From Pirellulales bacterium (GTDB taxonomy: Bacteria; Planctomycetota; Planctomycetia; Pirellulales; Thermoguttaceae): a stretch of DNA of 64,000 nucleotides. Position 1 is the stretch's first letter. Each line of letters begins with the position of its first letter. Of the stretch, positions 3,494-60,325 are shown one piece after another. The DNA lies in NCBI GenBank assembly GCA_963844755.1, contig CAWJPM010000008.1, forward strand, positions 69,788 to 133,787. The letters are read 5' to 3'. The position numbers were made by a program, and so were the translations under genes. The notes below the pieces were generated by a model that ran no database searches, was not told where the DNA came from, and was given only the letters and a program-made list of their open reading frames with translations.

Positions 3494-5451
3494 TTGAAGG
3501 TTTTGGCGCTGAAATTTCTCACGGTTCTTCTCTTGGCATATTTTGCCGTCGTTTTTCTACAACAGGCTACGCGCATCCTCGACGGTTACGATGCGGCTTA
3601 CTTCGCCAACGTGGCGCGGAACTTCGCGTTCCAACAGCGTTACGGCGTTTGGGACAACGGCGAATTCGTAACGTGCCCCGTTGAGGCCACAACCGGGCCG
3701 GCCATGCTCCTGCCGGTGGCCGCCGTCTATTGGTGCTTCGGCGACTGGGTGTTCCTGCCGGGTGTTGTGGGCGCGATTTTATGCCTAAGCGTGCTCGTCT
3801 TTGACTGGATAATTGCGGTTCCCGGCGATTCGCGGCAATCGGCCTGGCACTACTTTTCCTTGTTAGTCGCCATAATAGTGATGTTTTCGATCACGGCCAA
3901 AGGGTCGGATCACCGGTATTTCTACGCCTCACAGGGTGACGCGCTGGCGGGCCTGCTGCTGCTGGGGATGACTGTAACCCTGGGACGGGCGTACCAACGC
4001 GATCGCGCAGGATTTCTGGGCGGCATTAAGTGGAATTTTCGCGGCTATGGCGCTAAATACCAAAGTTTATTACAATCCTGCCCTTGACGGCCTGGACGGC
4101 GTTCGTTGTCATCTCCGCGGCGTTTCGGTGGATTCCGCGCCGCGCGGTTGCAATCGCGATAATTACATCCGCCGCGACTCAGGGCTGCTTCGCCTTGTTC
4201 AATCTGTGGCAAATCGGATCGCCGCGAGGATATCTATCGTACCTCCGGCAGTTTTGCGTTTTTTTCTGCAGGCCGGGATCGGGCTTAGGCGGTTCCAAAC
4301 CCCCACTCGGGCAACTATTCGCCGATCACGTGAATCAGTACTTTCTGGAATTCGGCTGGTGCGGCCTGGTTCTTCTGCTTCCGCTATTGGGCGGCTTGGT
4401 CTGCATGTGCCGATTGATTCGCAATCGGGGGTCGGCGGACGGTTGGATGGGTGTCGGCTGTACGTTTCAGATCGTGCCATTGCTCATGTGGTGGTTTTGT
4501 TTCTCCGACTTGACATGGACGAGGCATATCGCCCCAATCCTGGTGATACTGCCCTTCACCTGCCATTTTCTTTTTAGCGACGCGTGGCGCAAAACGCAAT
4601 CATGGTTCGCAAGAGCAGTGATTGCCGGCGGGTGGCCGATTTCATTGGCAGCAGCTTGCATGTTGTCGCCGTCGCGAGTTTGGGATCCGCCGCGGCTGAC
4701 GCCAGGGCCCCATGCCCGGAGCGTCGCCCTTCTGGAGTATGCCCGGGATATCGAAGCTTTACGCCTCGAACAACCCGATGCCCGGTTCTGGGGTTCCGGC
4801 TGGTGGAGGCACTGGGACGTGCAATTGACAACTCACGTGAAACTCTTGAACCTCCTCGAGTCGCCAAAGGGCGCGGCTGGCCCGGGGCAGGAAAATCATG
4901 ACTACTTGATCCTGTCGGATTACTTCAATTGGGAACACAATCCGGTCGCCACCTGGGTCGTCGAACGCAACCGGAACAATATCATTCTTTCGAGAGGGCC
5001 TTTCCAGTTGTGCCATTTGAAGCCTCCACCCGCGGCATTGGCCGGTGTAAAAGCATCTGCTTCCTACGAAAATCCCTCTATGGCGGGCCGCACGCTCGAA
5101 GCCTTGAACAACGGCTTCGATCCCTTCGTGCGGTTCACCTGGTGGGACCACGGCGGAACGAAGGAGTGGGTGCAATACGACTTCCCGGCCGAAACGCGCC
5201 TGTCGGCCGCCGAAGTTTATTGGTACGACGACAGCGTGTGGAAGGGCCGCTACGGCGTGCCCGAATCGTGGCAATTGCTATACAAGGACGGAGCGGATTG
5301 GAAGGAGGTGGAAAACGCCGGCGAGTTCGGCGTGAAACCGGACGCCTTCAATCGCGTGACGTTCAAGCCCGTGAGCACCACGTCGCTGAGGCTTGTCGTG
5401 AAACTCCGAAGCGGATTGCTCGGCGGAATTCTGGAATGGATAGTTGAGTAG
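3494..5451 (+). CDS. polytopic membrane protein (ArnT/PMT-like glycosyltransferase fold suspected) with a C-terminal discoidin/galactose-binding-like beta-sandwich; reading frame broken near 4040-4090
   Basis: AAGGAGG at 3482-3488 sits 5 nt before a TTG start. ORFs 3494..4087 and 4084..5451, plus a short stretch of frame 0 (AALSGIFAAMALNTKVYYNPAL), are all hydrophobic. The C-terminal 130 aa reads WVQYDF...AAEVYWYDD...WQLLYKDGADWKEV...LRLVVKL...GILEWIV. Confidence 0.55.
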
Positions 5452-6189: not shown

Positions 6190-7925
6190 CGCTTTGGGCA
6201 ATTTTCATACTGCCCCATGCCCTGGTGCCATCATACCTATCGACGAATGCGTGCGGCACGTTATTTTTCCCAAAGCAGGTCGCATTGTTCGGCCGGCACG
6301 TGTTTGACCCCAACAATATTTGGTCTGTTGATACCGAGGTATTTTCCCAAAGCTGCTTTCATCATCGGTTATCTGCTCGGCGGCGAGTATGCTCCTGCGA
6401 TTTTCAAACTTGGCGTCAATGGTCGTCGGGCATGTTGCTGATAGAAAACTATTGTCATCGCAGACTTCAATCTTCTTACCGGCCTTTTTTGCCGTCATAT
6501 CCTTGATTTCCACGCCGATTTTAGGATATTTCATGACTTGCGTTTATCTGGAGCCGTTCAATTTTTTGTCCGTGTCGGCCATGATGATCGCGGCAATGGA
6601 TGCTCTGGAGCATCTTGACCGCAATGCCGTCATTTTGTCGTTCATCCTCTGGCGGCGTTCGGTTTCCTATACAAGCAGCAGGCCGTGTTTTTCGCCCTGC
6701 CGATTGGCATCGATTTTAGACGGCTGCATTGTCGGTGCGTTGCATTCGGCAAAGATCATGCCGGCCGATGATTCTGGTTTGCCGGAGGAGTGCTGTCGGC
6801 GATAATCATCGTGTCGCCGTTTCTTGCGCAAAACTATATTTTAACAAAAAACCCGTTATTCCCCTTGTTAACGGCGTATTCCATTCGGAATTGATATCTC
6901 CCAGTAATTGGCAAGGATATCCGTTTCGACCAACCGTTTAATCTTGGGAGCCTGGCCGAATTGACGTTTCACGGCGAGCGGTTTTGGGAGTTGGGCTCGT
7001 TTGCATTTGGCGTTAATTTTTTCCTGTTATCGTGGTTAATTCCGCTGGCATATTCATCCGCGGAAATAATAAGGCGTTAAAATCGGGCCTCTTGGCGATA
7101 TTTGCGGCATCCCTGTTGCTGTGGTGGAAAATAACCAGTCCGAACATGCGTTACTTTGTCGGACCGTTGTCTGCCGGCGCCATTTTACTCGGTCTGACCA
7201 TGAACGAGATTTGGGAGAGGATCCGTCGCGATCGTCTTGCGTTGTCCTTTGGGAGTCGCGACTCTGGCGATTGCCATGATAGTAAATGCGGCATCGCTGT
7301 TAAACACAGTCGAGTATTGTTGTCAATATCCCTTGCTCGAGGCATTCACCAGGCAAGTATAACGGATTCGGCCAGGCGCGGTTGATCAAGGAAATCAGGA
7401 AAGTGTTTTTAACGGCCTATGCCAGGTTCGGCAAAGAGGGGTCGTGCCTGCTGGTTCAGGAGTCATTACTTATGCTTGGCCGACCAGCACATAGAAATGC
7501 TGGGAACAACATATCTGCCGAAATTGGGCCGCAATGCAGAATTGGCGAAATGAAGATGACGCATTTGATTGGATTTTCCGGAAAAAAAATTCTCTTGCGT
7601 TATTATGAAACAGAATCTCGATGGCAATAGACCGAATTGCAACATCCGACTGTTGTGTTCTCCGCGATTCCGCGAAATAGTGAATGTCGAGTTTGCCCAT
7701 GCCGGATTTCTCTTGTTAACGCCAAAAGCAAACAATGACAAGCCCTGAGCCGGATAAATGAAGCTTTGGTAGAAAATATGCCCTTGACCGGAATTCCAAT
7801 GCCGCGATGTACAAGTGCAATTGCCATCGGCTGGAATGGATTCCAGACACGGGGGCAATCCGTGCTGGCAGTGCTGTCATGCGGCGTATCCAACGCCGAA
7901 ACAGTCCAGGGAAGGAGATGTGCAA

Positions 7926-8995
7926 ATGATAAGCATTCTGCGCCAGGAAGCGACAATACCGTTCGGCCGATCCCGGCGGAATCCAGGAACTCAATATCGC
8001 CGTTCTCATTCCCTGCTACAACGAGGAATTGACCATAGCTTCGGTGATAGCCGACTTTCAGGCGGAACTTCCGGACGCGACCATCTATGTGTTCGACAAC
8101 AATTCGACCGATCGGACCGCGGAAATCGCCGACCAGGCCGGCGCGGTGGTTTTAAGAGAGAGGCGGCAGGGAAAAGGATTCGTCGTGCAATCAATGTTTC
8201 GCATGATCGATGCCGACGTATACATAATGATCGACGGCGACGCCACTTATCCGGCCTCCGATGTGCGCCGCCTGATCGCCCCCATCCAACAAGGCGAGGC
8301 CGATATGGTGGTCGGTTCGCGTCTGCACGCCAAATCAAACAGCAAATTCCGCCAGTTGAATTTGTTGGGCAACCGTATATTTCTCTCCACCCTTAAACGC
8401 CGTGTTCCACGTCCGCCTCACCGATATCCTTTCCGGATACCGGGCCTTTAGCCGCGAATTCGTCAAAACCGTCGCCCTGGTCGGCGGCGGATTCGAGGTG
8501 GAAACGGAACTTACCATCAAGGCCCTCGAGGCGGGCTTCCGCGTGGCGGAAGTTCCGGTCGATCTCAGCACACGGCCCGAGGGCAGCTTCTCCAAAATCC
8601 GGCCGCTGCACGACGGCCTGCGCATCCTCGGAACGATCTTCGCACTCTTGCGTGATTATAAACCCCTGACTTTCTTCGGCGTACTTGCCATTGCTTTTGT
8701 GATGGGCGGTTGCACCGCCGGCATGCCCGCAATTATTGACTATATCCGATCCGGCGTTGTTCTGCATGTGCCATCCGCGATCCTGGCGGTCGGCATGGTA
8801 TTGCTGGGAATGCTCCTGTTTACCGCGGGTCTTATTCTTCACTGCATGACGCGAAGGATCCGCGAAATTGAATACCAACTCCGCCGCGGCGTCGTATCGG
8901 AACGATTGCCCGCGCAATCGTTCCAAGCAAGCTCCGGGGCTAAACCTGGAATACGACATTTACTTGTCCCCACGCCGGATCTTGGGAGCAAGTAA
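7926..8995 (+). CDS. GT2 family glycosyltransferase (polyprenyl-phosphate sugar transferase/GtrB-like) with C-terminal TM helices; two frameshifts
   Basis: AGGAG at 7913-7917 precedes ATG 7926. IAVLIPCYNEE, DNNSTDRT and IDGDATYP are GT-A signatures. The frame changes near 7975 and near 8392 (AAA run), joining ORFs 7815-, 8029..8451 and 8402..8995 (LNAVFHVRLTDILSGYRAF). Confidence 0.75.
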
Positions 8996-9020
8996 AACAA
9001 CGTGCTCAATGCGCAACCAA

Positions 9021-9046
9021 AGCCCCCGGTGAAATCACCGGGGGCT
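9021..9046. terminator. perfect 12-bp hairpin between the convergent GT2 and eno genes
   Basis: AGCCCCCGGTGA-AA-TCACCGGGGGCT followed by an A/T-rich tract. It lies 26 nt after the GT2 stop. Confidence 0.55.
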
Positions 9047-9060
9047 AAATATTTATATTA

Positions 9061-9150
9061 GGAACTCCAACAAAACCTCCCCTCTCCCTTTGGGAGAGGG
9101 GCTAGGGGTGAGGGCGTTTTTGAAAGTGTAGCAGGTTTTGTTAGAACTCC
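9061..9150 (+). repeat. ~90-nt REP/MITE-like element, copy 1
   Basis: ggaactccaacaaaacct-cccctctccctttgggagagggg-ctaggggtgagggcg...aggttttgttagaactcc. Near-identical copies lie at 14312..14400 and 21972..22061. Confidence 0.8.
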
Positions 9151-9175
9151 TTAAAATATTTGATGTCAAAGATCG

Positions 9176-10464
<1,289 letters not shown>

Positions 10465-10731
10465 TTAATCTCCTATAGAAATGTTTTATTATTTTACCGC
10501 CAAGGGCTGGTCACTTTAGTGAACCAGTTGGCCCGATAAAATATGGTCCAACTATAAAGGTCTTCTGAAAACGTCCTATTTTGTATCATTAATCCGCACT
10601 TGACTAGTGGGGCAAAGACAATGATCCTAAGGTATCTGTTGTGATGATATTTGCCCCATTGCCTCTCGGGGGTGATATTACAACTGTTGACCCGTCGAAT
10701 AGTTTCAAATAACTCACTAAAAAGGGTGGTA

Positions 10732-11967
10732 TTATTCATCTCCAAGCCCATTCATGGAATCGGCGGTCCCGGCCAAGGCGGCTTCCAGTTGTAGCATCTC
10801 CTCATCGGCAATCGGCGTCCCAGGCAAAAGATGACGCGGAAGAAAAACCGCGTTGGCAATCATGGTCGGGATAACCGCGCTGCCGATGACCGCGGCAACA
10901 AGGAACGAGTATTGTTCCTTAGTCACAATGTTATGGGTCAGGCCGTAAAGGGCCGATATTGTGCCGAATGTCAATCCGGTTGACATCATGAGCGTGTAAT
11001 ACCAGCGTTCTTTGCTATCCTTTCTGAACAGGCCAATGACGGGAAACAGACCGAAAATCTTGGATACGACTTTTCCGCTAAATAGAACTAGGAACACCAT
11101 GGGAGCCGACATCAGCACCGGCAATGAAACCAAAGAACCCGCCCTAATGAAGTAAAAGGGCGTAAGGAAACCTATAGTCAGGGTTCGCAAGCGCCGGACA
11201 TAAAAATGATCCCGGCCGATGGTCTTGGCAAGGACCATGCCCGCAATATAGGCCGGCAATACGGCTTCGCTTCCCGCCCAAAGCGATAGTGCGCCTAATC
11301 CGCAGAGAACCAACAAAATCCATTTTGTTCGGATGGCGGCCGTGCGATTGCCATACCAGGCAATTATGCGCGACGTAAGAAAAGGCAGCAGCAGTAGAAC
11401 GGCGGCGCAGACTCCGACAAAAATAGCCGTTTTGTAGGTGAACGGGGCAAACACAAGCCCCAAGGCAATAACCGTGCCCAGATCGTTGACAAAACAAGCG
11501 CCCAGAATGCCCTTGCCGAATTCGGTCTTGTTGAAACCGGACTCCAGCATCACGGCATAGACCACGGCCATGGACGTTGTTGAAAGGGCTATGCCGGCCA
11601 GCCAACTTGCCGAAGGATCCCAACCTAAAACGAATCTTGCCAATGCGGCGCAACCCAGAAACGGGGCGATAAAACCGAACAGCCCGACGACCATAACCTC
11701 CCAAAACTTGGCCTTCATGGCGTCCGGATCGAGTTCAGCCCCGGCCAGGAAGGTCAGTAAAACCGCGCCGATCGAGGCCACGAATCGGAGCCAATCCAGA
11801 TCCGCGCCTAGGGCATTGGGGTGAAAGAACCGATCGGCCACCACGGCCGCCGCCATCCCAACGCAGATTTCCACCAGTGCCATGGACATCCGCAAGTGAC
11901 TGGCCAACATGGTGGCAAGAACGGCAAGGGCCAGCCAGATCGCGGCTATTGCATAGACGTGTTCCAT
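10732..11967 (-). CDS. cation:proton antiporter (Na+/H+ exchanger family, CPA-type)
   Basis: Intact 411-aa ORF with about 11-12 TM helices and a typical Na_H_Exchanger-like sequence (GLFGFIAPF, LSTTSMAVVYAVM). It lies directly downstream of the fluoride riboswitch. Confidence 0.75.
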   Translation of the reverse strand: MEHVYAIAAIWLALAVLATMLASHLRMSMALVEICVGMAAAVVADRFFHPNALGADLDWLRFVASIGAVLLTFLAGAELDPDAMKAKFWEVMVVGLFGFIAPFLGCAALARFVLGWDPSASWLAGIALSTTSMAVVYAVMLESGFNKTEFGKGILGACFVNDLGTVIALGLVFAPFTYKTAIFVGVCAAVLLLLPFLTSRIIAWYGNRTAAIRTKWILLVLCGLGALSLWAGSEAVLPAYIAGMVLAKTIGRDHFYVRRLRTLTIGFLTPFYFIRAGSLVSLPVLMSAPMVFLVLFSGKVVSKIFGLFPVIGLFRKDSKERWYYTLMMSTGLTFGTISALYGLTHNIVTKEQYSFLVAAVIGSAVIPTMIANAVFLPRHLLPGTPIADEEMLQLEAALAGTADSMNGLGDE

Positions 11968-11985
11968 CGAAGTTCCTCGGTACCA

Positions 11986-12113
11986 ACAAAAAAACCCTGT
12001 CTCTCGGCAGGGCTTGTTGGCACAGAGGTTTTAACCCCTGCCGTGAGGCTATCATGGCAGGAGTCATCAGCCCGGTTTCGGGCGGTTGTACGGGGGAACT
12101 CCATCCCCTTCAG
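11986..12113 (-). promoter_or_regulatory. fluoride riboswitch (crcB motif) aptamer at 12056-12110 plus expression platform with an intrinsic terminator at 11988-12015
   Basis: The minus-strand RNA reads GGGGAUGGAGUUCCCCCGUACAACCGCCCGAAACCGGGCUGAUGACUCCUGCC. This matches the conserved GAUGGnGUUC...AACCGCC-hairpin-GGCUGAUGAnUCCU core, and GGAGU/ACUCC can form the pseudoknot. It is followed by hairpin CUCCUGCC..GGCAGGGG and then AAGCCCUG-CCGAGAGA-CAGGGUUUUUUU. Confidence 0.85.
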
Positions 12114-12120
12114 CTTTTAT

Positions 12121-12149
12121 ATTATCGTCATTTATAAACGGATTGTCAA
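12121..12149 (-). promoter_or_regulatory. sigma70-type promoter for the riboswitch-antiporter-eno transcript
   Basis: The minus strand reads TTGACA (12149-12144), a 17-nt spacer, then GATAAT (12126-12121). This places the start about 5-10 nt before the aptamer. Confidence 0.6.
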
Positions 12150-12304
12150 GTAAAGATTAGTGCTGATTAGCCCTCCCGATCAAACCTACTCATCACCTAT
12201 AATCAGTGGCCAATTCTTCCCCTGTAAAACCCTCGTGCAATTTGCTATGATCTTTGCCGTAAACCGTTTACAGTCAATAAAATGCCCTGGATTACGGCAA
12301 CAAT

Positions 12305-12334
12305 CGTGGAAAAATCGCAATTTGGTGACCAAAA
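12305..12334 (+). promoter_or_regulatory. copy A of the 32-nt CGTGGAAAAATCGCGATTTTGGTGACCAAAA motif, 20 nt upstream of psd
   Basis: cgtggaaaaatcgcaatttggtgaccaaaa. See the findings for the five-copy alignment. Confidence 0.6.
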
Positions 12335-12353
12335 TCGCGCTGAAGTACAACCT

Positions 12354-13257
12354 ATGCCGGAGAATTTTCGCTCCGTGCAACCGGGGGGTGGGGTGTGCTA
12401 TCGCATCGAGTTGGCCTGGGGCGTCTGGCGCCGCTGGTGGCTGAAAAAATTCCGCCCTGGTTACGTGCGGCGAATGGCCCAATTGCGCCGCGGCAGTTGC
12501 GACGCCGCCCCGCACGAAATTCTCGATCCCCGCGATCTGAAATACTGCCGCAACGTGTGCCAATGCGATTGGGACGAGGCCGACGATCCGTTTCGCTGGC
12601 GCGAGCCGTCTGCTTTTTGCCCGTTGGGGATTGGCCGAACTGCAAATTTTCGGCTGGCCGCTTTTGGCGCTGACAATTTTGTCCGCGATATATGTTTGGT
12701 ATCTGGCCTTTGTGCCGGGAATTTTATTGTGTTTGGTAGTGCACTTCTTTCGCGATCCCAAGCGGCGCGTGCCGGCAGGGCAGGGGGTAATCGTTTCGCC
12801 GGCCGACGGCAAAATTACCGAGGTGGCATACCTGGAAAATGAAGATTTCATCGGAGGGCCGGCGGTGCGGATCAGCATATTTTTGTCGATTTTTAACGTG
12901 CATCTGAATCGCGCGCCGGTCGAGTCGAGGGTAATCGCCTTGCGCTATCGGCCCGGCGGATTTATGAGCGCCACGCGTCCGGAAAGCGGAATAAGCAACG
13001 AAAACACCTGGATCGGCTTGGAAGAGGAGTCGCCGCCGCACCGGCGCTTAATCGTGCGGCAAGTTTCCGGGGCGATTGCCCGGCGGATCGTGTGCGATCT
13101 TCGGCCCGGCCAGCTCGTTGCCCGCGGGCATAAATTCGGCATGATCAAGTTCGGCTCCCGCACCGAATTGATCCTGCCACAGTCCCAAGACCTTAAACTT
13201 GAAGTGAAAGTGGGCGATCGAGTCAGAGCGGGGACCACAGTAATTGGGAAATGGTAA
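12354..13257 (+). CDS. psd: phosphatidylserine decarboxylase-related protein (short Asd-type) with an N-terminal Cys-rich extension; frameshift near 12605
   Basis: ORF 12282..12842 (start probably ATG 12354; ...HEILDPRDLKYCRNVCQCDWDEADDPFRW) joins ORF 12631..13257 (VSPADGKITEV...FNVHLNRAP...GMIKFGSRTEL). Confidence 0.75.
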
Positions 13258-18775: not shown

Positions 18776-19574
18776 ATGAAGTGGATTTCTCTAGCAATCG
18801 TTGGTGTTACCCTGGCAATTGGCGTAGCAATGGCTGAAGCCCAAGACCGTGTCACCCGCTCGCCATCCACAAAGGATCAGGCTGCCGGCGCTAAAGTCAG
18901 CCAAGGCCAGGCTGCAATCGATCAGGCGGCGGCGGATCAGAAATACTCCTTGATCTTCTTTTGGAGGGATAAGAACACAAATACGGACAAGGCATGGAGT
19001 AATTTTTCTTCGGCCGCGGCCGGACTAGCGGATTCGGCTGCTGTGGTTTCCGTCCAAATCACCGATCCCGCCGAAAAGCAACTCGTTGATCGGTATGGCG
19101 TGGCCCGTACCGCCATGCCCATGGTGATGGCAGTCGCTCCATGCGGCGCTATTACCAAGGGATTTACCGGCGCAGTCGATGAATCCAAACTCCGCATCGC
19201 CTTTGTAAGTCCCTGCACGGCCGAGTGCATGAAAGCCCTTCAGCAGCGACAAATTAGTCCTGCTTTGCGTCGAACCCGCGTCCTCGCAGGTCAAGGAAAT
19301 GTCATTGCAAAAAGGCGTGCAAGATTTCACCGCTGACCCGCAATACGCGAAAACCAGCGCAGTGGTGGTTCTCAATGCGGGCGATCAGGCGGAAGAATCG
19401 TTTCTGAAAGACTTAAAAGTTGATGCGAAAACGCCCACTCAAGTCACGGTGCTATTGTCCCCGCCCGGCTCGGTACTCGGCACGCTTGTGGGAAACGTCA
19501 CCCAAGCCCAGATCGTCGCCAAAATAAAAGAAGCATCGACTTGCGGTCCCAATTGCGCTTGTCATCAGAAATAG
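18776..19574 (+). CDS. secreted protein with two thioredoxin-fold-like repeats (no CxxC) and a Cys/His-rich C-terminal tail; frameshift near 19250-19300
   Basis: Strong SD (AAGGAGG) and a signal peptide MKWISLAIVGVTLAIGVAMA. ORFs 18776..19336 and 19299..19574 join. The two halves align with each other (YSLIFFWRD.../...VVVLNAGDQ...). The tail is STCGPNCACHQK. Confidence 0.5.
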
Positions 19575-19586
19575 GAGACACAATCC

Positions 19587-20799
19587 ATGCGTTTACGAAC
19601 CATTGTTTTGCGCGAAATCTTTGAGCGCAAGAGCCAATTGCTCACCAGCTTCCTGGCGATTCTGCTGGGAATCACGGTGATCGTTTCCATCAAAAACATC
19701 TCCTATTATTCCGAGATGGCCGTGGCGCGGGAAATGGACTCGCTTGGAGCAAATGTCCTGGTGTTGCCAAAGTCGTCTACCTTGCAGGATTACTATGCAG
19801 CCGACATGCAGGGTGAAACCATTCCCGAGGAATACGTGACGCAACTTGCCATGTCCGACCTCGAAGGACTCGATAACCTTTCGCCGAAGCTATCGGTTCC
19901 GGTGGAAATTGGCGATAAGACCTTCACGCTTACCGGCATCTTGCCTAAAAGCGAGTTCCAAGCTAAGGCGGCTTGGGGCGGCGCGGGCATCTTTTCTCGG
20001 CCCATAGGTTGCGGGGCCTCGGTTGGCATGATGGGATCTGATGACAAGAAGACGCTAGCCCGCAAGCGGGTCATCGACACGCTGGAAGACAACGAAGTTC
20101 TAGTGGGAGCCGATGTTGCCGTAAATATTGCATTGAAAGATGCCGACACGCTCGAACTGCTCGGCAAAAAATTCACGGTAACTGCGGTATTGCCACAGAC
20201 GGGCACTGTAGATGATTCGCGCATCTTCGCCCATCTCCACACAGTGCAAGACTTGACCGGAAAAGGGCCGGTCATCAACGCCATTGAAGTCATCGGCTGC
20301 TGCCAGCAGATTTCCAAAGGGTTGGTGGCAAAAATCAATAGCCTGTTGCCCGATGCAAAGGTAGTCACGATCACGCAGATCGCCGATGCCCAGATCAAGA
20401 TCAATCGGATGATGTCCAACCTCTCGCTAATGTTCCTTGTGATTATAATTTTCGTCGGCGGAGCCAGCATTGCAAATTATATGTATGCGAACGTCTTCGA
20501 GCGGAGACGGGAAATCGGAACGCTGATGGCGCTGGGCACTGACTCGCGGTTGATTCAGAAAATATTTCTGTTAAAAGCCTTATTGTTGGGCGCTGCCGGC
20601 GGGATTTGCGGTTATGTGCTGGGCACGATCCTGGCCGTAGTGCTAGGCCCAAGGTTGGCCGGCGTGCCTGTGCTGCCGATGCCGCTATTAGCGTTAGTGG
20701 CGATAGGCATTTCCGTCAGTCTTACCATTGTGCGCAAGTTATTTTCCCGCCAGGCGAGCAGCCCGACTCGACCCTTGTTCTACTTTCCAGGAGATCTGA
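19587..20799 (+). CDS. ABC transporter permease, FtsX/MacB-LolC type; frameshift near 20735
   Basis: The first 385 aa of ORF 19587..21497 show a TM helix, a large periplasmic domain and three further TM helices. After a +1 shift the C-terminus reads [14 protein letters not shown]...QEI*, the canonical FtsX end, with a stop at 20797-20799. Confidence 0.8.
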
Positions 20800-20802
20800 A
20801 CC

Positions 20803-21497
20803 ATGTTACGAATGGAAAACGTTTCCAAAAAATATCGTCATCGCGGCCAAATTGTGACGGCCTTGGACGGCGCCGACCTGAGAATATCCAAGGGCGACTT
20901 CGTGGCCGTGGTCGGCCCCAGCGGGAGCGGCAAAAGCACGCTATTGCTGATGCTGGGCGGCATGTTATCGCCCAGTTCGGGCCGCGTGCTGCTGGAAGGA
21001 GAGTCGATCTACGACTTGAAATCCGACCAGCGCACAGACTGAGAAAAAAGAAGATAGGTTTTGTCTTCCAGACGTTCAACCTCGTAACTTATCTATCGGC
21101 TTTGGAAAATGTGCAAATCCCGCTGTATCTTGCCGGGCTGGAGGGCAAGGCCCAAGCGGAACGAGCCACATTTTTGTTAGACCGCGTGGGATTGGCCGAC
21201 AGACTGCATCACAAGCCCTGCGAGCTTAGCGTGGGACAGCAACAGCGCGTCGCACTGGCGCGGATGCTGGCCAACGATCCGGCGGTGATTTTGGCCGACG
21301 AGCCGACCGGAAACCTGGATCCCGAGACTACCCAACATGTAATCAAGTTTCTCGAGGAGGTCAACCAGGAAGGCCGCACAATCGTCATGGTGACCCACGA
21401 CCCCCGCGCGGCTGAAAAGGCGAAAAATACCCTGCGATTAACCAACGGGGCAATCATCTCAAACAAACAGGACTGGGAAGAATTACATGTTGCATGA
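20803..21497 (+). CDS. ABC transporter ATP-binding protein (LolD/MacB-type); frameshift near 21035
   Basis: ORF 20803..21042 (Walker [10 protein letters not shown]) continues in the frame of ORF 19587..21497 ([41 protein letters not shown]). Confidence 0.85.
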
Positions 21498-21531
21498 AGA
21501 GATTCAAAACTGCCCCGACGTGGAAGTATGC

Positions 21532-21590
21532 TTGACAGGCGAGCCGGGGGCTGATAAAAATTGCCAAACGACAAACTTATCCTTTGGCAA
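21532..21590 (+). promoter_or_regulatory. sigma70-like promoter plus inverted-repeat operator upstream of arsR
   Basis: TTGACA (21532-21537), a 17-nt spacer, then TAAAAA(T). It is followed by TTGCCAAA-N14-TTTGGCAA (21561-21590), a dyad of the kind ArsR/SmtB repressors bind. Confidence 0.5.
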
Positions 21591-21606
21591 TGCGTCATGC
21601 GACATT

Positions 21607-21981
21607 ATGTGGGATTTCATGGCTGTTACCAAGGCCTTGGCCGACGAAAACCGGGTCCGCATGCTGCTGGCCCTGCAGAAGCAAGAGCTTTGCCTATGCC
21701 AGCTCATCGAATTGGTAAAACTTGCCCCGTCTACGGTCTCAAAACACATGTCGATTCTTCGAGCAGCGCGCCTGGTCGATGCCCGCAAGGACGGCCGCTG
21801 GATGTATTACCGGTTGGCCGGGGCAAAATCTTCACCGATCGTCCAAAGGGTCATCGAGTGGGCGAGGAAATCGTTGGCCGACGATCCGCAAATAATCGGC
21901 GACGCGAAACGACTGGAACAAATTCTCAAAATGGACGCGCACAAATTGTGCGAAAGCCAATGTTCGCCTAAGGGACTCTAA
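21607..21981 (+). CDS. arsR: ArsR/SmtB family metalloregulator
   Basis: ALADENRVRMLLALQKQELCLCQLIELVKLAPSTVSKHMSILRAARLV. This shows the ELCxC metal site and the wHTH. I chose the start at ATG 21607 inside ORF 21487..21981. Confidence 0.85.
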   Translation: MWDFMAVTKALADENRVRMLLALQKQELCLCQLIELVKLAPSTVSKHMSILRAARLVDARKDGRWMYYRLAGAKSSPIVQRVIEWARKSLADDPQIIGDAKRLEQILKMDAHKLCESQCSPKGL

Positions 21982-22061
21982 CAAAACCTCCCCTCTCCCA
22001 TTGGGAGAGGGGCTAGGGGTGAGGGCGTCTTTGGATGTGTAGCAGGTTTTGTTGGAATTCC
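21972..22061 (+). repeat. ~90-nt REP/MITE-like element, copy 3, inside the arsR-arsC spacer
   Basis: gggactctaacaaaacctcccctctcccattgggagaggggctaggggtgagggcg...aggttttgttggaattcc. It overlaps the last codons of arsR. Confidence 0.8.
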
Positions 22062-22112
22062 TAAGTAAATCCGTTCCCTTAAAAAATAATTCCTCGCCCC
22101 ACATATACATGC

Positions 22113-22577
22113 ATGAATGATTCGACCACACAGTCCAAGAAACTAAAAATCCTTTTCTTATGCACCGGCAACTCGTGCCGCAGCCAGATGGCCGAGGCAT
22201 GGACGCGGGAACTGATCGGCGATCGCATCGAGGCCTATTCCGCGGGGATCGAAGCACGCGGTCTTGATCCGCACGCGGTTAAAGCCATGGCCGAGGCAGG
22301 GGTCAATATCGCCGGCCAAAAATCAAAGCGCATCGATGCGTTGCGGGACGTGGATTTCGATTACGTGGTAACAGTCTGCGACCACGCCCGGGAAAACTGC
22401 CCGGTATTTCCCGGCAAAGCCAAGGCCATTCATGCCGGCTTCGACGATCCGCCCCGTTTGGCGGCAGTCGCCCGAACTGAAGAGGAGCGCCTTGCCCCAT
22501 ATCGCCGCGTGCGGGATGAAATCCGAGAGTTCGTCAAAAATCTACCGAGTTTAATTGAGGAATGGTCTGTGCAATGA
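22113..22577 (+). CDS. arsC: arsenate reductase, low-molecular-weight phosphatase (thioredoxin-coupled) type
   Basis: [17 protein letters not shown]-loop (CX5R) with downstream Cys residues; 154 aa. Confidence 0.85.
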
Positions 22578-23629
22578 GTGCAACCGCCGTAAAAAAACTA
22601 TCGTTTCTCGATCGCTATCTGACGCTGTGGATCTTTATTGCCATGGCGGCCGGCGTGGCGCTGGGGCGATTAGCGCCCGGTGTGGCGGCTCTGATCGACA
22701 GCTTCAAAATGGATAAGACCACGAGCATCCCCATTGCCGCCGGCCTGATCCTGATGATGTATCCGCCCTTGGCCAAGGTAAGATACGAAGAGTTGGGCGA
22801 CGTATTTCGCAATTGGAAGGTGCTGGGGCTCTCGCTGGTGCAGAATTGGGTGATCGGCCCGGTGCTGATGTTCGGCCTGGCCGTGATTTTCCTCCGCGGT
22901 GAGCCCGGCTATATGACGGGCCTGATCCTGGTGGGCCTGGCACGCTGTATTGCGATGGTCATCGTGTGGAACGATTTGGCCCGTGGCGATACTGAATATG
23001 CGGCCGGATTGGTGGCCTTTAACAGCATTTTTCAAGTTTTATTCTATAGTCTTTACGCTTACGTTTTCATCACCGTTTTGCCGCCGCTTATGGGGCTTAA
23101 GGGCGACGTGGTCGAAGTGACCATCGGCCAGATTGCCAAGAGCGTTTTCATTTATCTGGGCATCCCGTTCTTGGCCGGCATGATTACCCGGTTTGTCCTT
23201 GTAAAATGGCAAGGGCGAACGTGGTACGAGGAAAAGTTTATTCCCAAAATCAGCCCCATCACGCTGGTCGCATTGCTTTTTACGATCGTAGTGATGTTCA
23301 GCCTGCAAGGTGAAAAAATCGTGAACGAACCGCTGGACGTGCTGCAAATCGCCGTGCCGCTTTTGATATACTTTGTCGTAATGTTCCTGGTCAGTTTTTA
23401 TATGGGTCGCAAGATTGGCGCCACTTATGCCCAAACCGCGACCCTCTCTTTCACAGCGGCCAGCAATAATTTCGAGTTGGCGATTGCCGTGGCTGTGGCG
23501 GTTTTCGGCATGCAAAGCAATGTGGCCTTTGCCACGGTGATCGGCCCATTGGTCGAGGTTCCGGTGATGATCGGACTGGTGAACGTCGCGCTCTATTTCC
23601 AGCGGCGTTATTTTGGGCAATCTGAATAA
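22574..23629 (+). CDS. acr3: arsenite efflux permease, ACR3 family
   Basis: ATGA overlap with ars[15 protein letters not shown]...MMYPPLAKV...[10 protein letters not shown] is typical of Acr3; about 10 TM helices. Confidence 0.85.
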
Positions 23630-32830: not shown

Positions 32831-33318
32831 ATGCAGTACCAATTCTCTTCCGCTGCCGAACGAGCTTTGATTTACGCGGCCGGTTGCACCAGTCGTGCCG
32901 ATTACGCCGAGCTGGCCGCACCGGCCCTGCTTTTGGGATTATTGGCCGAATCGGAATGCCGGGCGGCATTAATGCTAGCAAAACACGGCGATAACCGCGG
33001 AATCCGTATATCAGCAATGGCCAAAATCTGCAAATATTACCACCTGATGGTGGTGTTCAGACTACTCTGCTGGGAATTATCACGCCCGAACTTGACCGAT
33101 CGCTTCAAATCGTCACCCAATTGGTGGCGGAATATATGAATCCCCCCATGTTGGAGACAGAACATCTGCTACTCGCGTTGCTGGCAGCCGAGGACGAACT
33201 GGCCCAATGGCTTAGCCAGCGGGGGGTACGATCAGCGGAAATCGAAGCCGATATCCGCAAACGCCATGGTTATCGAGAAGGGCCATTGCCCCTCGAAGCC
33301 GAGCCAATATCGAAATAG
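32831..33318 (+). CDS. Clp_N (Clp repeat) domain protein, frameshifted around 32990-33050
   Basis: Two Clp_N-like repeats: AAERALIYAA...PALLLGLLAE and LDRSLQIVTQLVAE...ETEHLLLALLAAE. ORFs 32831..33139 and 33121..33318 are joined through a third frame. Confidence 0.55.
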
Positions 33319-33336
33319 TGGACAGTGGGCAGATGG

Positions 33337-33470
33337 ATTGCAGATTGCAAGTTTCAAATTGCAAATTGTAGACCGCGAGCCGGAGGCGAGCAGTTGGCAG
33401 GGTTCAGGGATTCAGGGTTCAGGAGTTCAGGATTCAGACTTCGTCCCTCATCCTTCATCCCTCATCCTTC
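33337..33470 (+). repeat. low-complexity word-repeat block (ttgcaa words, then ggttcagg(g/a)a x4, then tccctcatccttca x2) abutting the thiE ATG
   Basis: Read directly: gcagattgcaagtttcaaattgcaaattg ... ggttcagggattcagggttcaggagttcaggattcag ... tccctcatccttcatccctcatccttcATG. Confidence 0.8.
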
Positions 33471-34560
33471 ATGCCTCGCCCTTTTCGCATCATCGATGCG
33501 GCGGCGAATCGGGCCCGGGAAGGATTCGCGTGGCCGAGGATTTTGTCCGCTTCGTGCTCGATGATCGGCATCTTACCGAACAATGCAAGCAGTTGCGCCA
33601 CGATCTGACCGCTTTATTGGGCCAGATACCCGGCGAACAACTTCTGGCCGCCCGGGAAACGCAGGCCGACGTGGGCACCACTTTGGCCACTCCGTCCGAA
33701 GAGCATCGCTGTGATGCGACAGAGGTGCTTTTGGCCAATTTCGCCCGGTTGCAAGAATCGCTCCGCAGCCTGGAGGAATTCGGCAAACTCATGGATCCAG
33801 TCTGGGCGGCCGAAATCAAACAACTCCGCTACCGCAGTTACACCTTGCACCGGGCGGTTGAAATTACCCGAACCAGCATCAAGCGGCTTGCCAACGCCCG
33901 GCTGTATGTGCTCATCGACGGCCGGACCACGCTCGACGATTTCCGCCAATTGGTTCAAGCGTTAATCGCAGCCGGAGTGCATATACTTCAACTTCGCGAT
34001 AAAAAACTCGACGACCGGCAATTGGTCGAGCGTGCCCGGCTTCTGCGAGAATTAACCTGGGGGACTGTCCCGATTTTCTCGCTAGGGAAAATGGGACTGT
34101 CCCCTTTGTACGTAATAAGACCTTGTTCATAATGAACGATCGGCCCGACCTGGCGGCAGTTTGCCATGCCGATGGAGTTCACCTGGGCCAGGAAGACCTT
34201 TCGGTCAAGGACGCCCGGGCGATTGTCGGCGCCGATGCGCTTATCGGCGTATCGACGCACACCATCGAACAAGCCCGGCAAGCGGTCCTTGAAGGCGCCA
34301 ACTACATCGGCACCGGCCCGACGTTCCCCTCCGGCACAAAGCAGTTCGAAAACTTCCCCGGCCTGGAATTTCTTAGAGCAGTAGCCGCCGAAATCCGCCT
34401 TCCCGCCTTCGCTATCGGCGGAATAACGCCAGCCAAACTGCCCCAAGTATTAGCAACCGGAATCACCCGCATAGCCGTAAGCGGTTCAATCACCTCCGCC
34501 CCCGATCCTGTCTCTGTGATGTGTGATTTATTGGAACAATTAGGAATCGAGAAACCTTAA
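33471..34560 (+). CDS. thiE: thiamine-phosphate synthase, long form with an N-terminal regulatory-like domain; frameshift near 33526 and a palindromic insertion at 34058-34110
   Basis: MPRPFRIIDAAANRAREGF/RVAEDFVRFVLDD (N-domain as in cyanobacterial long ThiE), then LYVLIDG...HILQLRDKK...LFIMNDRPDLA...ADGVHLGQEDL...IGVSTH...YIGTGPTFPS..K...AIGGI. Confidence 0.8.
34059..34104 (+). repeat. 46-nt imperfect palindrome (GGGGACTGTCCC-GATTTTC ... GAAAAT-GGGACTGTCCCC) inside the thiE coding region
   Basis: ggggactgtcccgattttc-tcgctagg-gaaaatgggactgtcccc. The thiE frame differs before (frame 2) and after (frame 1) this block. Confidence 0.75.
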
Positions 34561-58094: not shown

Positions 58095-60297
58095 GTGATG
58101 CGTATTGCAACTTGGATATGTTCGGGACTGATTTGTTTTGTTATTGCTCTTGGAAGGTCGAATCTTTGCCGAGGCGGTTCCTCCCGGCGAATTCTTATTT
58201 CCCGATACTACCCGGGGTTTTATAGCCATAACCAAATTCGACACGTTAAGCGAGAATTACAACAAGACCCAACTGGGAAAACTTACCGCCGATCCGAAGA
58301 TGGAGGCGTTCACGAAGGACGTGCGGCGGCAGTTTGAAATCCGCTGGTCGGCGGTTCACGCCCGCCTGGGATTGACCCTGGACGATTTGAAGGAAGTGTC
58401 GAGCGGCGAGGTGTGCGTGGGACTTATCGAGCCGGTTGAAAACACCTCGGCCCTGGCGATCGTGATCGATGCGACGCGGGAAACTGGACAAGGCCCGCGA
58501 ACTGATGGACCGGGTAAAAAAGAATCTTACGGACCAGGGCGGCAAGCGAACTGTTTTGAAAGTGGAGGAATGTCCCGATCAGGTGATTCAATTCGAGATG
58601 CCCATTCCCCCGGAGGAGCAAGAGGCCGCGGCCAGCAAATTACCTGGGGGTCGGCAGACTGAATCGGCCAGGCGCGGCTGCGGGCAAGGATCAGCCCAAG
58701 CCCCGCTTGTCATATTATGTTCTGACTGGAAACGTGCTATGTTCTTCGGACGATTTGGCGGTCATGCGAGGGATTCTCGGCCGGCTGGCGGGCAAAAAAG
58801 GCGGCAGCTTGTCGGAGGTTGAGGGTTTCAACAAGGTCCTGGAGCGATGCAAGACGGATATTCCCGACATTACGCCGCAAATTCGCTGGTTTATTTATCC
58901 GTTGGGCTATGCGGCGGCTGCCCGGGCCGCCCAACCGCCGCAACAGCGCCGCAAAGGCAAAAGCATCTTGGAAATAATGCGCAACCAGGGCGTGGGGGCG
59001 ATTCAAGGGCATGGGCGGATACGCCAGTTTTTCATCGGAGGGATTCGACCTGGTGCACCGCACCGCCGTATATGCCCCCTTGCCCTACAAGAATGCCATG
59101 AAAATGCTGGTGCTTCTTAACGGCAAGGATTACACGCCGCAAAAGTGGGTGCCGCGCGAGATTGCCACATACAGCACGTTATATTTCGACGTCCTTAATG
59201 CCTTTGACAATTTCGGTCCGTTGTTTGACGAACTGTACGGGGCGGGCGAATCGGGCGCATGGGCCGACGTGCTTAAAGGAGAGAAAGAAGATCCCAACGG
59301 GCCGCAAATCGACCTGCGCGAGGAGTTGTTCAAGAAACTGGGACAGCGGGTGTCGATGTTGACCGATTATGAATTGCCCATCACCACCGCCAGCGAACGG
59401 CTGTTGTTCGCCATCGAGAGCACCGACGACAAGGCCGTGGCCAAGGCGCTGCAAAAGTGGTTTGGAAACGATCCTACCGCCAAGCGGCGCGAAATCGACG
59501 GTCACGTGATCTGGGAGATCGTGGAAAACGAGGGGCCGGAGATGGACACGCCCGGAGGTTTCGCTGGGAGACGTGCCCGACCTGGTGCCCCAGGCGAAAC
59601 GGAAAAAGACCAATCAGCAAAACGTCATGCCGCACGCGGCGTCCACGGTGGTGGACGGGAACCTGTTCATCGCCTCGCACTTGGATTTCCTGCTGAAAGT
59701 GTTGAGGTCCGACGATCCGCTGGTCAAGGACGTTGATTATCAGATGGTCAAGGAAACCATCGATCAAATGGTTCCGCAAGACAAGTGCGGCAGGATATTT
59801 TCGCGGACCGACGAGGAATATCGCCCCACGTATGAAATGATCAAGCAGAACAAGATGCCGGAAAGCGAGTCGATGTTTGCCAAGTTTTTGAACAATCTTT
59901 TTGGGGAAGGCAAGAAGGGCGCGAGGCAGCAAAAGATCGACGGCAGCAAAATGCCCGACTACGAAATGGTGCGCCATTACCTCAACCCGGCCGGCATGCA
60001 AATAACAAGCGAGAAAGACGGCTGGTTCCTTAAGGGTTTCACACTGAATATGGAAGCCGTTAAAGGCGAGCAAACCGTTCAGTCATCGCAATCGCAGACG
60101 CCGGCGGAGCCGCAAACGAAACCGGACTCGCAAAACTCATCACGCTCCAAAAACGCCCGCCGAAGCAAAAACGCCGGATGGTCCAGCCGACATCCGCGGA
60201 TCCGGCAACGCCGCCGGAAAGCAAGACTCAACTGGAACCGCAAGTGCAAGCCGAATTGCAATCGAAGCAAGCGGAAAACAGCACGGTTAAAAAATAG
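58095..60297 (+). CDS. large conserved-looking secreted protein of unknown function; multiple frameshifts
   Basis: Signal peptide MMRIATWICSGLICFVIAL. Colinear pieces are ORFs 58138..58662, 58707..59120, 59011..59736 and 59573..60361. The Lys/Gln/Pro-rich tail ends at TAG 60295-60297. Confidence 0.5.
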
Positions 60298-60325
60298 AGA
60301 ACCGAACTGTGCATCTGTTCTTATT

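Follow-up and report, generated by a model that had tools for sequence, protein, structure and literature searches.

The leader and its gene

The window analysed here is a 64-kb stretch of DNA from a Pirellulales bacterium. All window coordinates count from its first letter, and those of the features discussed below are collected in Table 1. The minus strand carries a short leader with a promoter, a fluoride riboswitch aptamer and an intrinsic terminator, followed by a gene for a cation/proton antiporter and then by the enolase gene, eno. In our view, the segment 12149-11988 (-) very likely constitutes an entire fluoride riboswitch leader that is driven by its own promoter and controls the antiporter gene by conditional termination of transcription. 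For comparison, relatives of the antiporter were sought in one genome per species; 336 were confirmed, and the best 80 were kept, with their loci designated L001 to L080.

Table 1. Coordinates of the features described in the window and, in the last row, in related loci
Feature	Coordinates	Strand	Basis or details
Sigma-70-type promoter, TTGACA (12149-12144), 17-nt spacer, GATAAT (12126-12121)	12121..12149	(-)	11 of 12 consensus positions
Fluoride riboswitch aptamer (crcB motif)	12051..12117	(-)	RF01734, 59.1 bits; covariation
Hairpin 1, putative anti-antiterminator	12035..12064	(-)	Aptamer 3′ tail ACUCCUGCC pairs with GGCAGGGGU; in minimum-free-energy fold
Alternative helix, putative antiterminator	12005..12043	(-)	CGGCAGGG (12043-12036) with CCCUGCCG (12012-12005), 8 bp
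Intrinsic terminator	11988..12015	(-)	Stem AAGCCCUG/CAGGGUUU, loop CCGAGAGA, then U7 (11994-11988)
Shine-Dalgarno-like GAGGA	11974..11978	(-)	6 nt before antiporter ATG, by direct reading
Antiporter gene, 411 aa	10732..11967	(-)	PF00999; ATG at 11967, 84 nt past aptamer 3′ end
Conserved intergenic block, 57 nt, TAGTCA (10606-10601), 17-nt spacer, CAAAAT (10583-10578)	10568..10624	(-)	Conservation
Enolase gene eno, in two frames	9176..10458	(-)	Enolase_N open reading frame 10458-10018, Enolase_C open reading frame 10021-9176
Terminator-like hairpin after eno	9079..9101	(-)	10-bp stem with 8 G-C pairs, then AGGUUUUGUU
Dynamin genes in related loci	L025:2210-3954, L038:2212-3953, L047:2179-3920, L054:2230-3637, L046:3702-1936 (-), L072:3787-3132 (-), L079:5289-7185		

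A fluoride riboswitch aptamer upstream of the antiporter gene

We scanned the whole window on both strands with all 4227 Rfam families at the gathering-score cut-off. The only match was to the fluoride riboswitch family, RF01734, at 12117..12051 (-). With 59.1 bits (gathering score, 34), an E-value of 7.4e-14, and the model matched in full (positions 1 to 64 of 64), the match is far beyond chance. A first-pass annotation of this DNA, made from the letters alone, had proposed a crcB-motif fluoride aptamer on the minus strand about 90 nt before the antiporter ATG and had named a search with RF01734 as the check. That search bears out the aptamer and its position, and the measured distance is 84 nt. 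All of the sequence elements quoted in the annotation were also found on the minus strand where it had placed them.

The letters of the aptamer, GGGGAUGGAGUUCCCCC-GUAC-AACCGCCCGAAACCGGGCUGAUGACUCCUGCC, run from 12108 to 12056 (-). In stem P1, GGGG (12108-12105) pairs with CCCC (12096-12093) and encloses AUGGAGUU, which conforms to the GAUGGnGU loop that defines membership of the family. The pseudoknot is formed by GGAGU (12102-12098) and ACUCC (12064-12060), and stem P3 by nucleotides 12083-12079 and 12074-12070. The junction letters AACCGCCCG-AAAC-CGGGCUGAUGA agree with the family consensus (AACCGCC and CUGAUGA), and none of the conserved nucleotides of the family is missing. The window thus has in common with RF01734 the P1 stem with its GAUGGAGU loop, the 5-bp pseudoknot to ACUCC, both junctions and the short P3; the aptamer itself shows no difference from the family, and the gene that follows it is of a class on record for RF01734. 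For the 141-nt leader, the folding z-score is -4.97 relative to 200 dinucleotide shuffles, none of which folds equally well.

The related loci were searched for aptamers with Rfam and with a covariance model of our own, which was built from the Rfam hits in the first 19 loci tested, 18 of which carry a fluoride aptamer, and then run on the window and all 80 loci. These searches replaced a hand-written regular expression for the aptamer core, which was too strict and recovered only 8 of the 80 loci. The covariation analysis, another check that the first-pass annotation had named, was performed on 77 aptamers from the window and the 80 loci, with 500 shuffles and slid alignments as controls. P1 was paired in 100% of cells, with changes on both sides in three of its four pairs. 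The pseudoknot was likewise paired in 100% of cells, and its compensatory variants in relatives include GGAGU/ACUCC, GAGGU/ACCUC, GGGGU/ACCCC and GGCGU/ACGCC. Covariation was found in all five pairs of P3. For P1, the pseudoknot and P3 together, 96.6% of cells were paired and 10 of 14 pairs had both-side changes, values that were attained in none of the 500 shuffles; in the slid controls, pairing dropped to 43-62%. By its sequence and covariation, the element is a genuine crcB-motif fluoride riboswitch, and its membership of the family implies that it would bind fluoride. The crcB motif was reportedly described as a fluoride riboswitch by Baker et al. in 2012 (Science 335:233).

The association of this aptamer with the antiporter extends well beyond the window. 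An aptamer is present at most 450 nt upstream of the antiporter gene, on the same strand, in 59 of the 80 loci, mostly at a distance of 80 to 112 nt. In 5 more it is located further upstream on the same strand and heads a longer operon, which brings the loci with a same-strand upstream aptamer to 64 of 80; in 1 locus the sequence upstream of the antiporter is cut off. These counts agree with the earlier proposal that antiporters are riboswitch-associated genes. In the window, the aptamer occupies the 5′ leader of a PF00999 antiporter gene, 84 nt before the start codon, and this gene class has a known connection to the toxicity of fluoride.

A conserved promoter and expression platform

The sequences that flank the aptamer were compared in a set of 15 Pirellulales relatives. 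The promoter hexamers and the four segments that make up the platform (see below) are invariant across this set, and the loops and spacers differ. Within the promoter, TTGAC and the A/T of the second hexamer never change and the spacer is variable. Transcription is predicted to start near 12115 (-). The core of the first hairpin is formed by CUCCUGCC (12063-12056) and GGCAGGGG (12042-12035); this hairpin was paired in 98% of cells, with an invariant stem and a variable loop. The terminator has the stem AGCCCUG..CAGGG, and a pattern scan marked 12015-11992 as terminator-like. It was paired in 98.9% of cells in relatives whose loops differ, and its 3′ arm reads GACAGGG in the window, L001 and L002 versus GGCAGGG in the other relatives. 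Neither hairpin 1 nor the terminator showed covariation within the Pirellulales clade. Around the antiporter start codon, GAGGAACUYCRAUGGAACA is conserved in relatives.

Several elements of this platform had been read directly from the letters in the first-pass annotation, namely, a TTGACA-17-GATAAT promoter ahead of the aptamer, an intrinsic terminator after it, and a GGCAGGG segment with two alternative pairing partners, the aptamer tail and the 5′ arm of the terminator. The near-consensus match and the conserved hexamers support the first of these, the pattern scan recovered the second with its stem and U7, and folding showed both pairings of the third.

Alternative pairings and the proposed logic of the switch

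Four segments of the leader can form competing helices. Segment 1 is the aptamer tail (12064-12056), which includes the 3′ strand of the pseudoknot, segment 2 is CGGCAGGGG (12043-12035), segment 3 is CCCUGCCG, and segment 4 is GACAGGG (12001-11995), which is followed by U7. Segments 1 and 2 are complementary over 10 bp and segments 2 and 3 over 8 bp, and segment 3 is also complementary to segment 4. In the unconstrained fold of the leader, segments 1:2 and 3:4 are paired, i.e., the terminator is formed. We then mimicked the ligand by blocking the strands of the pseudoknot. In a nascent transcript reaching to segment 3, the minimum-free-energy fold of the blocked RNA was the 2:3 pairing, at -32.0 kcal/mol. 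For a window transcript ending in the terminator loop, the value for the terminator 5′ arm being held rose from 0.00 without the block to 1.00 with it. Of 22 further four-segment loci that were evaluated, 13 also switched in silico.

This behavior is consistent with a fluoride-ON, kinetically controlled antiterminator. Without fluoride, the aptamer tail would pair with GGCAGGGGU, which would sequester the 3′ strand of the pseudoknot; CCCUG would be left free and would pair with CAGGG to form the terminator before U7, and the transcript would stop ahead of the gene. With fluoride, the Mg2+-F- complex would fix ACUCC in the pseudoknot with GGAGU. The freed CGGCAGGG could then capture the 5′ arm of the terminator as this arm leaves the polymerase, the terminator would be too late to form, and RNA polymerase would continue into the antiporter gene. 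The decision would thus be a kinetic one, made while RNA polymerase crosses the U tract.

A number of observations weigh against this interpretation of the leader. Among the 22 further four-segment loci, nine showed no switching in the in silico test. In the full-length leader with the pseudoknot strands blocked, the terminator fold was at -63.0 kcal/mol versus -48.7 kcal/mol for the fold with the antiterminator enforced. The antiterminator helix was paired in 96.7% of cells in the 15 relatives, but its eight pairs never vary there and thus gave no covariation; because the helix is invariant within the clade, this test is uninformative either way. Moreover, 15 of the 80 close homologues of the antiporter had no aptamer in the retrieved DNA with either our covariance model or Rfam, and the searchable literature yielded no study testing the role of this antiporter in fluoride tolerance. 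A shuffle test of the complementarity between segments 2 and 3 was given no weight, as it has low power for short, G+C-rich segments and as segment 3 of the window had been shortened by the heuristic.

A purely thermodynamic switch was considered and rejected, because equilibrium folding of the full leader yields no antiterminator even with the strands blocked. Since the full-length terminator is the more stable structure despite the block, the switch must be assumed to be kinetic. Transcriptional fluoride riboswitches are generally thought to act in this manner. The crcB riboswitch of Bacillus cereus is a transcriptional ON switch with a Rho-independent terminator, and its control is believed to be kinetic, features that the leader in the window would share. 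In the B. cereus platform, however, the 3′ strand of the pseudoknot is itself the 5′ arm of the terminator, whereas the window has an extra hairpin inserted between the two. Related loci contain both types of platform, in classes that were assigned heuristically: the direct layout, in which the pseudoknot 3′ strand serves as terminator 5′ arm, is used by 13 loci (e.g., L024, L036 and L072), and the four-segment layout recurs with different sequences in other phyla (L016, L026, L058 and L078). With its two sets of pairings (1:2 plus 3:4, or 2:3), the layout of the window is akin to that of a classical attenuator and is common to many relatives.

We also considered that the element might act on translation, in addition to or instead of transcription, which we regard as unlikely. 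CCUC (12028-12025) can pair with GAGG of the Shine-Dalgarno sequence in a helix that extends the terminator, and transcripts that escape termination without ligand would then stay translationally silent. Such a mechanism is in line with the minimum-free-energy folds of the leaders in the window, L001, L002 and L005, which include the GUGCCAACAA/UUGUUGGUAC and CCUC/GAGG pairings, and with a probability of at most 0.01 that the Shine-Dalgarno bases are unpaired in the unconstrained ensemble. In addition, no terminator could be recognised by our heuristic classes in about 22 of 60 related leaders, which may be translational. However, the extended helix was paired in just 61.5% of cells across the 15 relatives, and the Shine-Dalgarno sequence is still mostly paired in the modelled ON state (unpaired probability of 0.05-0.12). 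As it stays mostly paired in both states, the model does not separate ON from OFF at the level of translation. The strong stem and U7 of the terminator, which are present and conserved, also argue against translational control, and we retain conditional termination of transcription as the preferred mechanism.

Integrity of the leader and of the neighboring genes

Three genes near the leader carry frameshifts, which could be taken to mean that the RF01734 match is a coincidence or the remnant of a decayed element and regulates nothing in this genome. Nothing else speaks positively for this explanation, and we consider it extremely improbable. The E-value of the match (7e-14) and the presence of every conserved nucleotide of the family argue against it, and so does the state of the locus: the promoter, the aptamer, both hairpins, the terminator and the antiporter open reading frame (ORF) are all intact in the window and are 80-97% conserved in relatives. 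The frameshifts themselves are single-base indels of the kind typical of sequencing error, and the orthologues of the affected genes are intact.

The first of these indels affects eno, which lacks one G in a G run at 10045-10044; in an alignment with four close relatives, the window reads GTGGC versus GTGGGC in the relatives. A tblastn comparison of enolase with the window shifts from frame -2 to frame -1, and the eno orthologues in L001 to L005 are intact ORFs of 427 aa. The second is found in a GT2 glycosyltransferase gene at 7900-8995 (+), where an A run near 8394-8396 is one A too long. The third adds one base near 12606-12612 to the psd-like gene at 12306-13257 (+), which encodes a phosphatidylserine-decarboxylase-like protein of 316 aa and lies upstream of the leader in divergent orientation. 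The GT2 and psd-like genes are intact in L001 and L002. One-nucleotide indels thus break three of seven syntenic genes, and same-strand ORFs abut one another elsewhere in the window as well (e.g., at 3494-5451, 19299-21981, 33266-34560 and 58707-60361). The three indels and the many abutting ORFs therefore point to an error-prone assembly rather than to pseudogenes. The split of eno is probably an assembly error, and the pattern suggests that the sequence of the window comes from an uncorrected long-read assembly.

Relationship of the enolase gene to the riboswitch

The first-pass annotation had placed the antiporter and enolase genes in a single operon. An enolase gene is indeed present downstream of the antiporter, but it does not form one ORF; its division over two frames had been missed. 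Both genes are encoded on one strand, and a pattern scan of the 273-nt spacer that separates them, 10731-10459 (-), found no terminator-like site, so that read-through is possible. The hairpin that follows eno is the probable end of any transcript reading through this gene. The spacer nevertheless contains a 57-nt block, with two promoter-like hexamers, that is nearly invariant in L001, L002, L003 and L005, whereas the remainder of the spacer diverges or is deleted. This block also holds an imperfect palindrome, CACTAGTCAAGTG. It was not listed by our promoter scan because only 8 of 12 consensus positions match in the window.

The arrangement in L004 is informative in this respect. In that locus, a TauE-family gene on the opposite strand is located between the antiporter and eno genes, and the block is kept before eno as TAGACA-17-CAAAAT, with 9 of 12 consensus positions. 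The persistence of the block in front of eno despite the intervening gene thus indicates that eno appears to have its own promoter, and from its conservation we take the block at 10624-10568 to be probably an eno promoter or operator. A metagenome scan with the eno-upstream block recovered one contig that matches L003 in arrangement and identities and thus provides no independent context. No second aptamer was detected before eno in L001 to L005 with Rfam or our covariance model, and Rfam at an E-value threshold over 9000-12700 revealed no further RNA family in the spacer.

The enolases themselves provide additional indications. Those of the window clade are 90-97% identical to one another and 57-62% identical to the other antiporter-linked enolases. 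They follow the lineage, and the eno gene of the window therefore looks like a resident gene, possibly with a housekeeping role. The enolase encoded next to the antiporter in L012, a locus from a Thermoguttaceae MAG, differs in this regard. It is 84% identical to one from a Nitrospirales metagenome-assembled genome (MAG) (L012:1974-3239 (-) and L023:95-1465 (+)) and only 61-62% identical to the window-clade enolase, which suggests that the L012 gene is a horizontally transferred copy. When the window was searched by tblastn with an intact enolase orthologue as query, no second enolase locus emerged, and neither the CRCB nor the CLC family was among the matches listed (25 of the 54 Pfam families of the window ORFs).

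Links between fluoride riboswitches and both genes are documented. In a review published in 2024, Stockbridge and Wackett rank Na+/H+ antiporters by frequency directly behind the exporters among riboswitch-associated genes and state that fluoride-riboswitch operons often include enolase; for both statements they cite Baker et al. 2012 (PMC11139923). In Enterobacter cloacae FRM, the operon is arranged as riboswitch-ppaC-uspA-eno-gpmA-crcB, fluoride induces eno 176-fold, and co-transcription of eno has been demonstrated by reverse transcription-PCR (PMC5533749). As in the window, a fluoride riboswitch heads a gene cluster that includes enolase. However, the E. cloacae cluster carries the CrcB exporter, whereas the first gene in the window codes for a CPA-type antiporter, and the E. 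cloacae eno gene is inside the operon, whereas that of the window is 273 nt away across a promoter-like block. Because the review and the E. cloacae operon cover both gene associations, the biology put forward in the first-pass annotation is correct but already textbook.

That the riboswitch drives a single polycistronic antiporter-enolase transcript, with fluoride inducing the transporter together with extra copies of a fluoride-inhibited enzyme, is conceivable but somewhat doubtful. The shared strand, the terminator-free spacer, the hairpin located after eno and the precedent of E. cloacae FRM would fit such a transcript, as would the preservation of the antiporter-eno order in L001, L002, L003 and L005. 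Enolase is also a recurrent neighbor of the antiporter, being encoded within 4 kb of it in about 17 of the 80 loci and representing its commonest immediate downstream neighbor (6 of 75), and tight arrangements exist, as in L074, in which eno ends 18 nt before the antiporter gene. Conversely, the conserved promoter-like block, its persistence in L004 where the opposite-strand gene precludes co-transcription, and the resident character of the window-clade enolases argue against a shared transcript. In L006 to L011, moreover, the riboswitch-antiporter unit occurs without eno, and the eno ORF of the window is interrupted in this assembly. The two genes therefore share two properties of an operon, a common strand and no terminator between them, but the sequence points to an independent promoter for the distal gene. 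The eno gene may receive some read-through from the riboswitch transcript, although the sequence does not require it.

With respect to annotation, the leader marks the 411-aa transporter as predicted to be fluoride responsive, and co-regulation of the neighboring enolase should not be taken for granted. The locus adds one example, in uncultured planctomycetes of peat and soil, to a class described in 2012, and a standard Rfam scan is sufficient to find it.

Features and distribution of the antiporter

The identification of the antiporter rests on a match to PF00999 (Na_H_Exchanger) with 114.8 bits (cut-off, 26.2; E 5e-33), in keeping with the earlier proposal that the riboswitch precedes a cation/proton antiporter. 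The protein scored 109.5 bits against TIGR00932 (CPA2) of NCBIfam, below the cut-off of 238.3. By sequence it is a CPA2-like member of the Na_H_Exchanger superfamily, an assignment that stops above the level of the subfamily. An exact-protein database look-up returned no record of it, and no anomaly was seen in the base composition of its gene.

The closest solved structures are those of two CPA2 proteins, NapA of T. thermophilus (PDB 4bwz, 5bz2 and 5bz3; E 6e-9 with 4bwz) and KefC of Escherichia coli (8bxg), with which the antiporter has the PF00999 fold in common. The alignment covers residues 22-364, and the regions of the "ATS"-like motif in transmembrane segment (TM) 4 and of the acidic motif in TM5 align, but the likeness is only distant. 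Where NapA has an ion-binding DD pair, the antiporter of the window has ND at residues 161-162 and thus does not have the paired aspartates of TM5 that are found in the electrogenic NapA and NhaA. Unlike KefC, it has no C-terminal KTN domain. The ND pair is present in 78 of the 80 orthologues, and the motif F[VI]NDLG in 76. Overall, 160 of the 411 positions are at least 95% identical, which is unusually high for a membrane transporter.

The closest relatives, with 97%, 95% and 89% identity, are from Thermoguttaceae MAGs obtained in a peat experiment, followed by those from Pirellulales MAGs, and by these relatives the host is an uncultured planctomycete of the Thermoguttaceae/Pirellulales. Among the best 80 of the 336 relatives, homologues with 65-97% identity occur in more than 15 phyla. 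Those with 65-72% identity are found in Desulfobacterota, Omnitrophota, Nitrospirota, Myxococcota, Bacteroidota/Ignavibacteria, Spirochaetota, Armatimonadota, Actinomycetota, Lentisphaerae, Margulisiibacteriota, WOR-3, Bipolaricaulota and others. As judged from these sequences, the antiporter belongs to an orthogroup of high conservation, of which about 80% of the members, spread over many phyla, are linked to the riboswitch, a lead that can be followed up. Its product presumably offsets the acidification or the ion imbalance that follows the entry of hydrogen fluoride.

Other genes and RNA elements in the related loci

Several of the antiporter loci contain more than one fluoride aptamer. Three each were found in L025 and L046, and two each in L038, L079, L080, L072, L024, L061, L050 and L074. 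The aptamers of such loci head different genes, e.g., for a MutS domain V protein (L046:5314-7086) or a HIT-domain protein (L025:5713-6180), and these multi-aptamer loci look like small fluoride-response islands.

In seven related loci, genes for dynamin-family GTPases (PF00350; approximately 555-580 aa) are located directly downstream of fluoride aptamers. Of the 80 antiporter loci, 11 have a dynamin-family homologue; the window has none, and the searchable literature contained no paper joining fluoride, riboswitch and dynamin. The recurrence of these GTPases directly behind fluoride aptamers is a second lead. Both this lead and that on the antiporter are independent of the window, so that any cultured carrier would serve to pursue them.

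A more far-reaching proposal, which we offer as speculation with little likelihood of being right, is that the antiporter orthogroup might be a dedicated, horizontally spreading fluoride-stress transporter with ND in place of DD, and that the fluoride regulon might extend to membrane remodelling by dynamin. If so, the riboswitch-linked antiporter would not be a generic Na+/H+ exchanger.

Two further RNA elements were observed in the flanks of related loci, an nhaA-I RNA (RF03057) at L047:17-75 (-) and a group II intron domain (RF00029) at L006:7367-7447 (+). In the window, away from the leader, positions 21487-23629 (+) hold an arsenic-resistance-like cluster composed of genes for an ArsR-type HTH_5 regulator, an LMWPc (ArsC-type) phosphatase and an SBF/ACR3-type permease.

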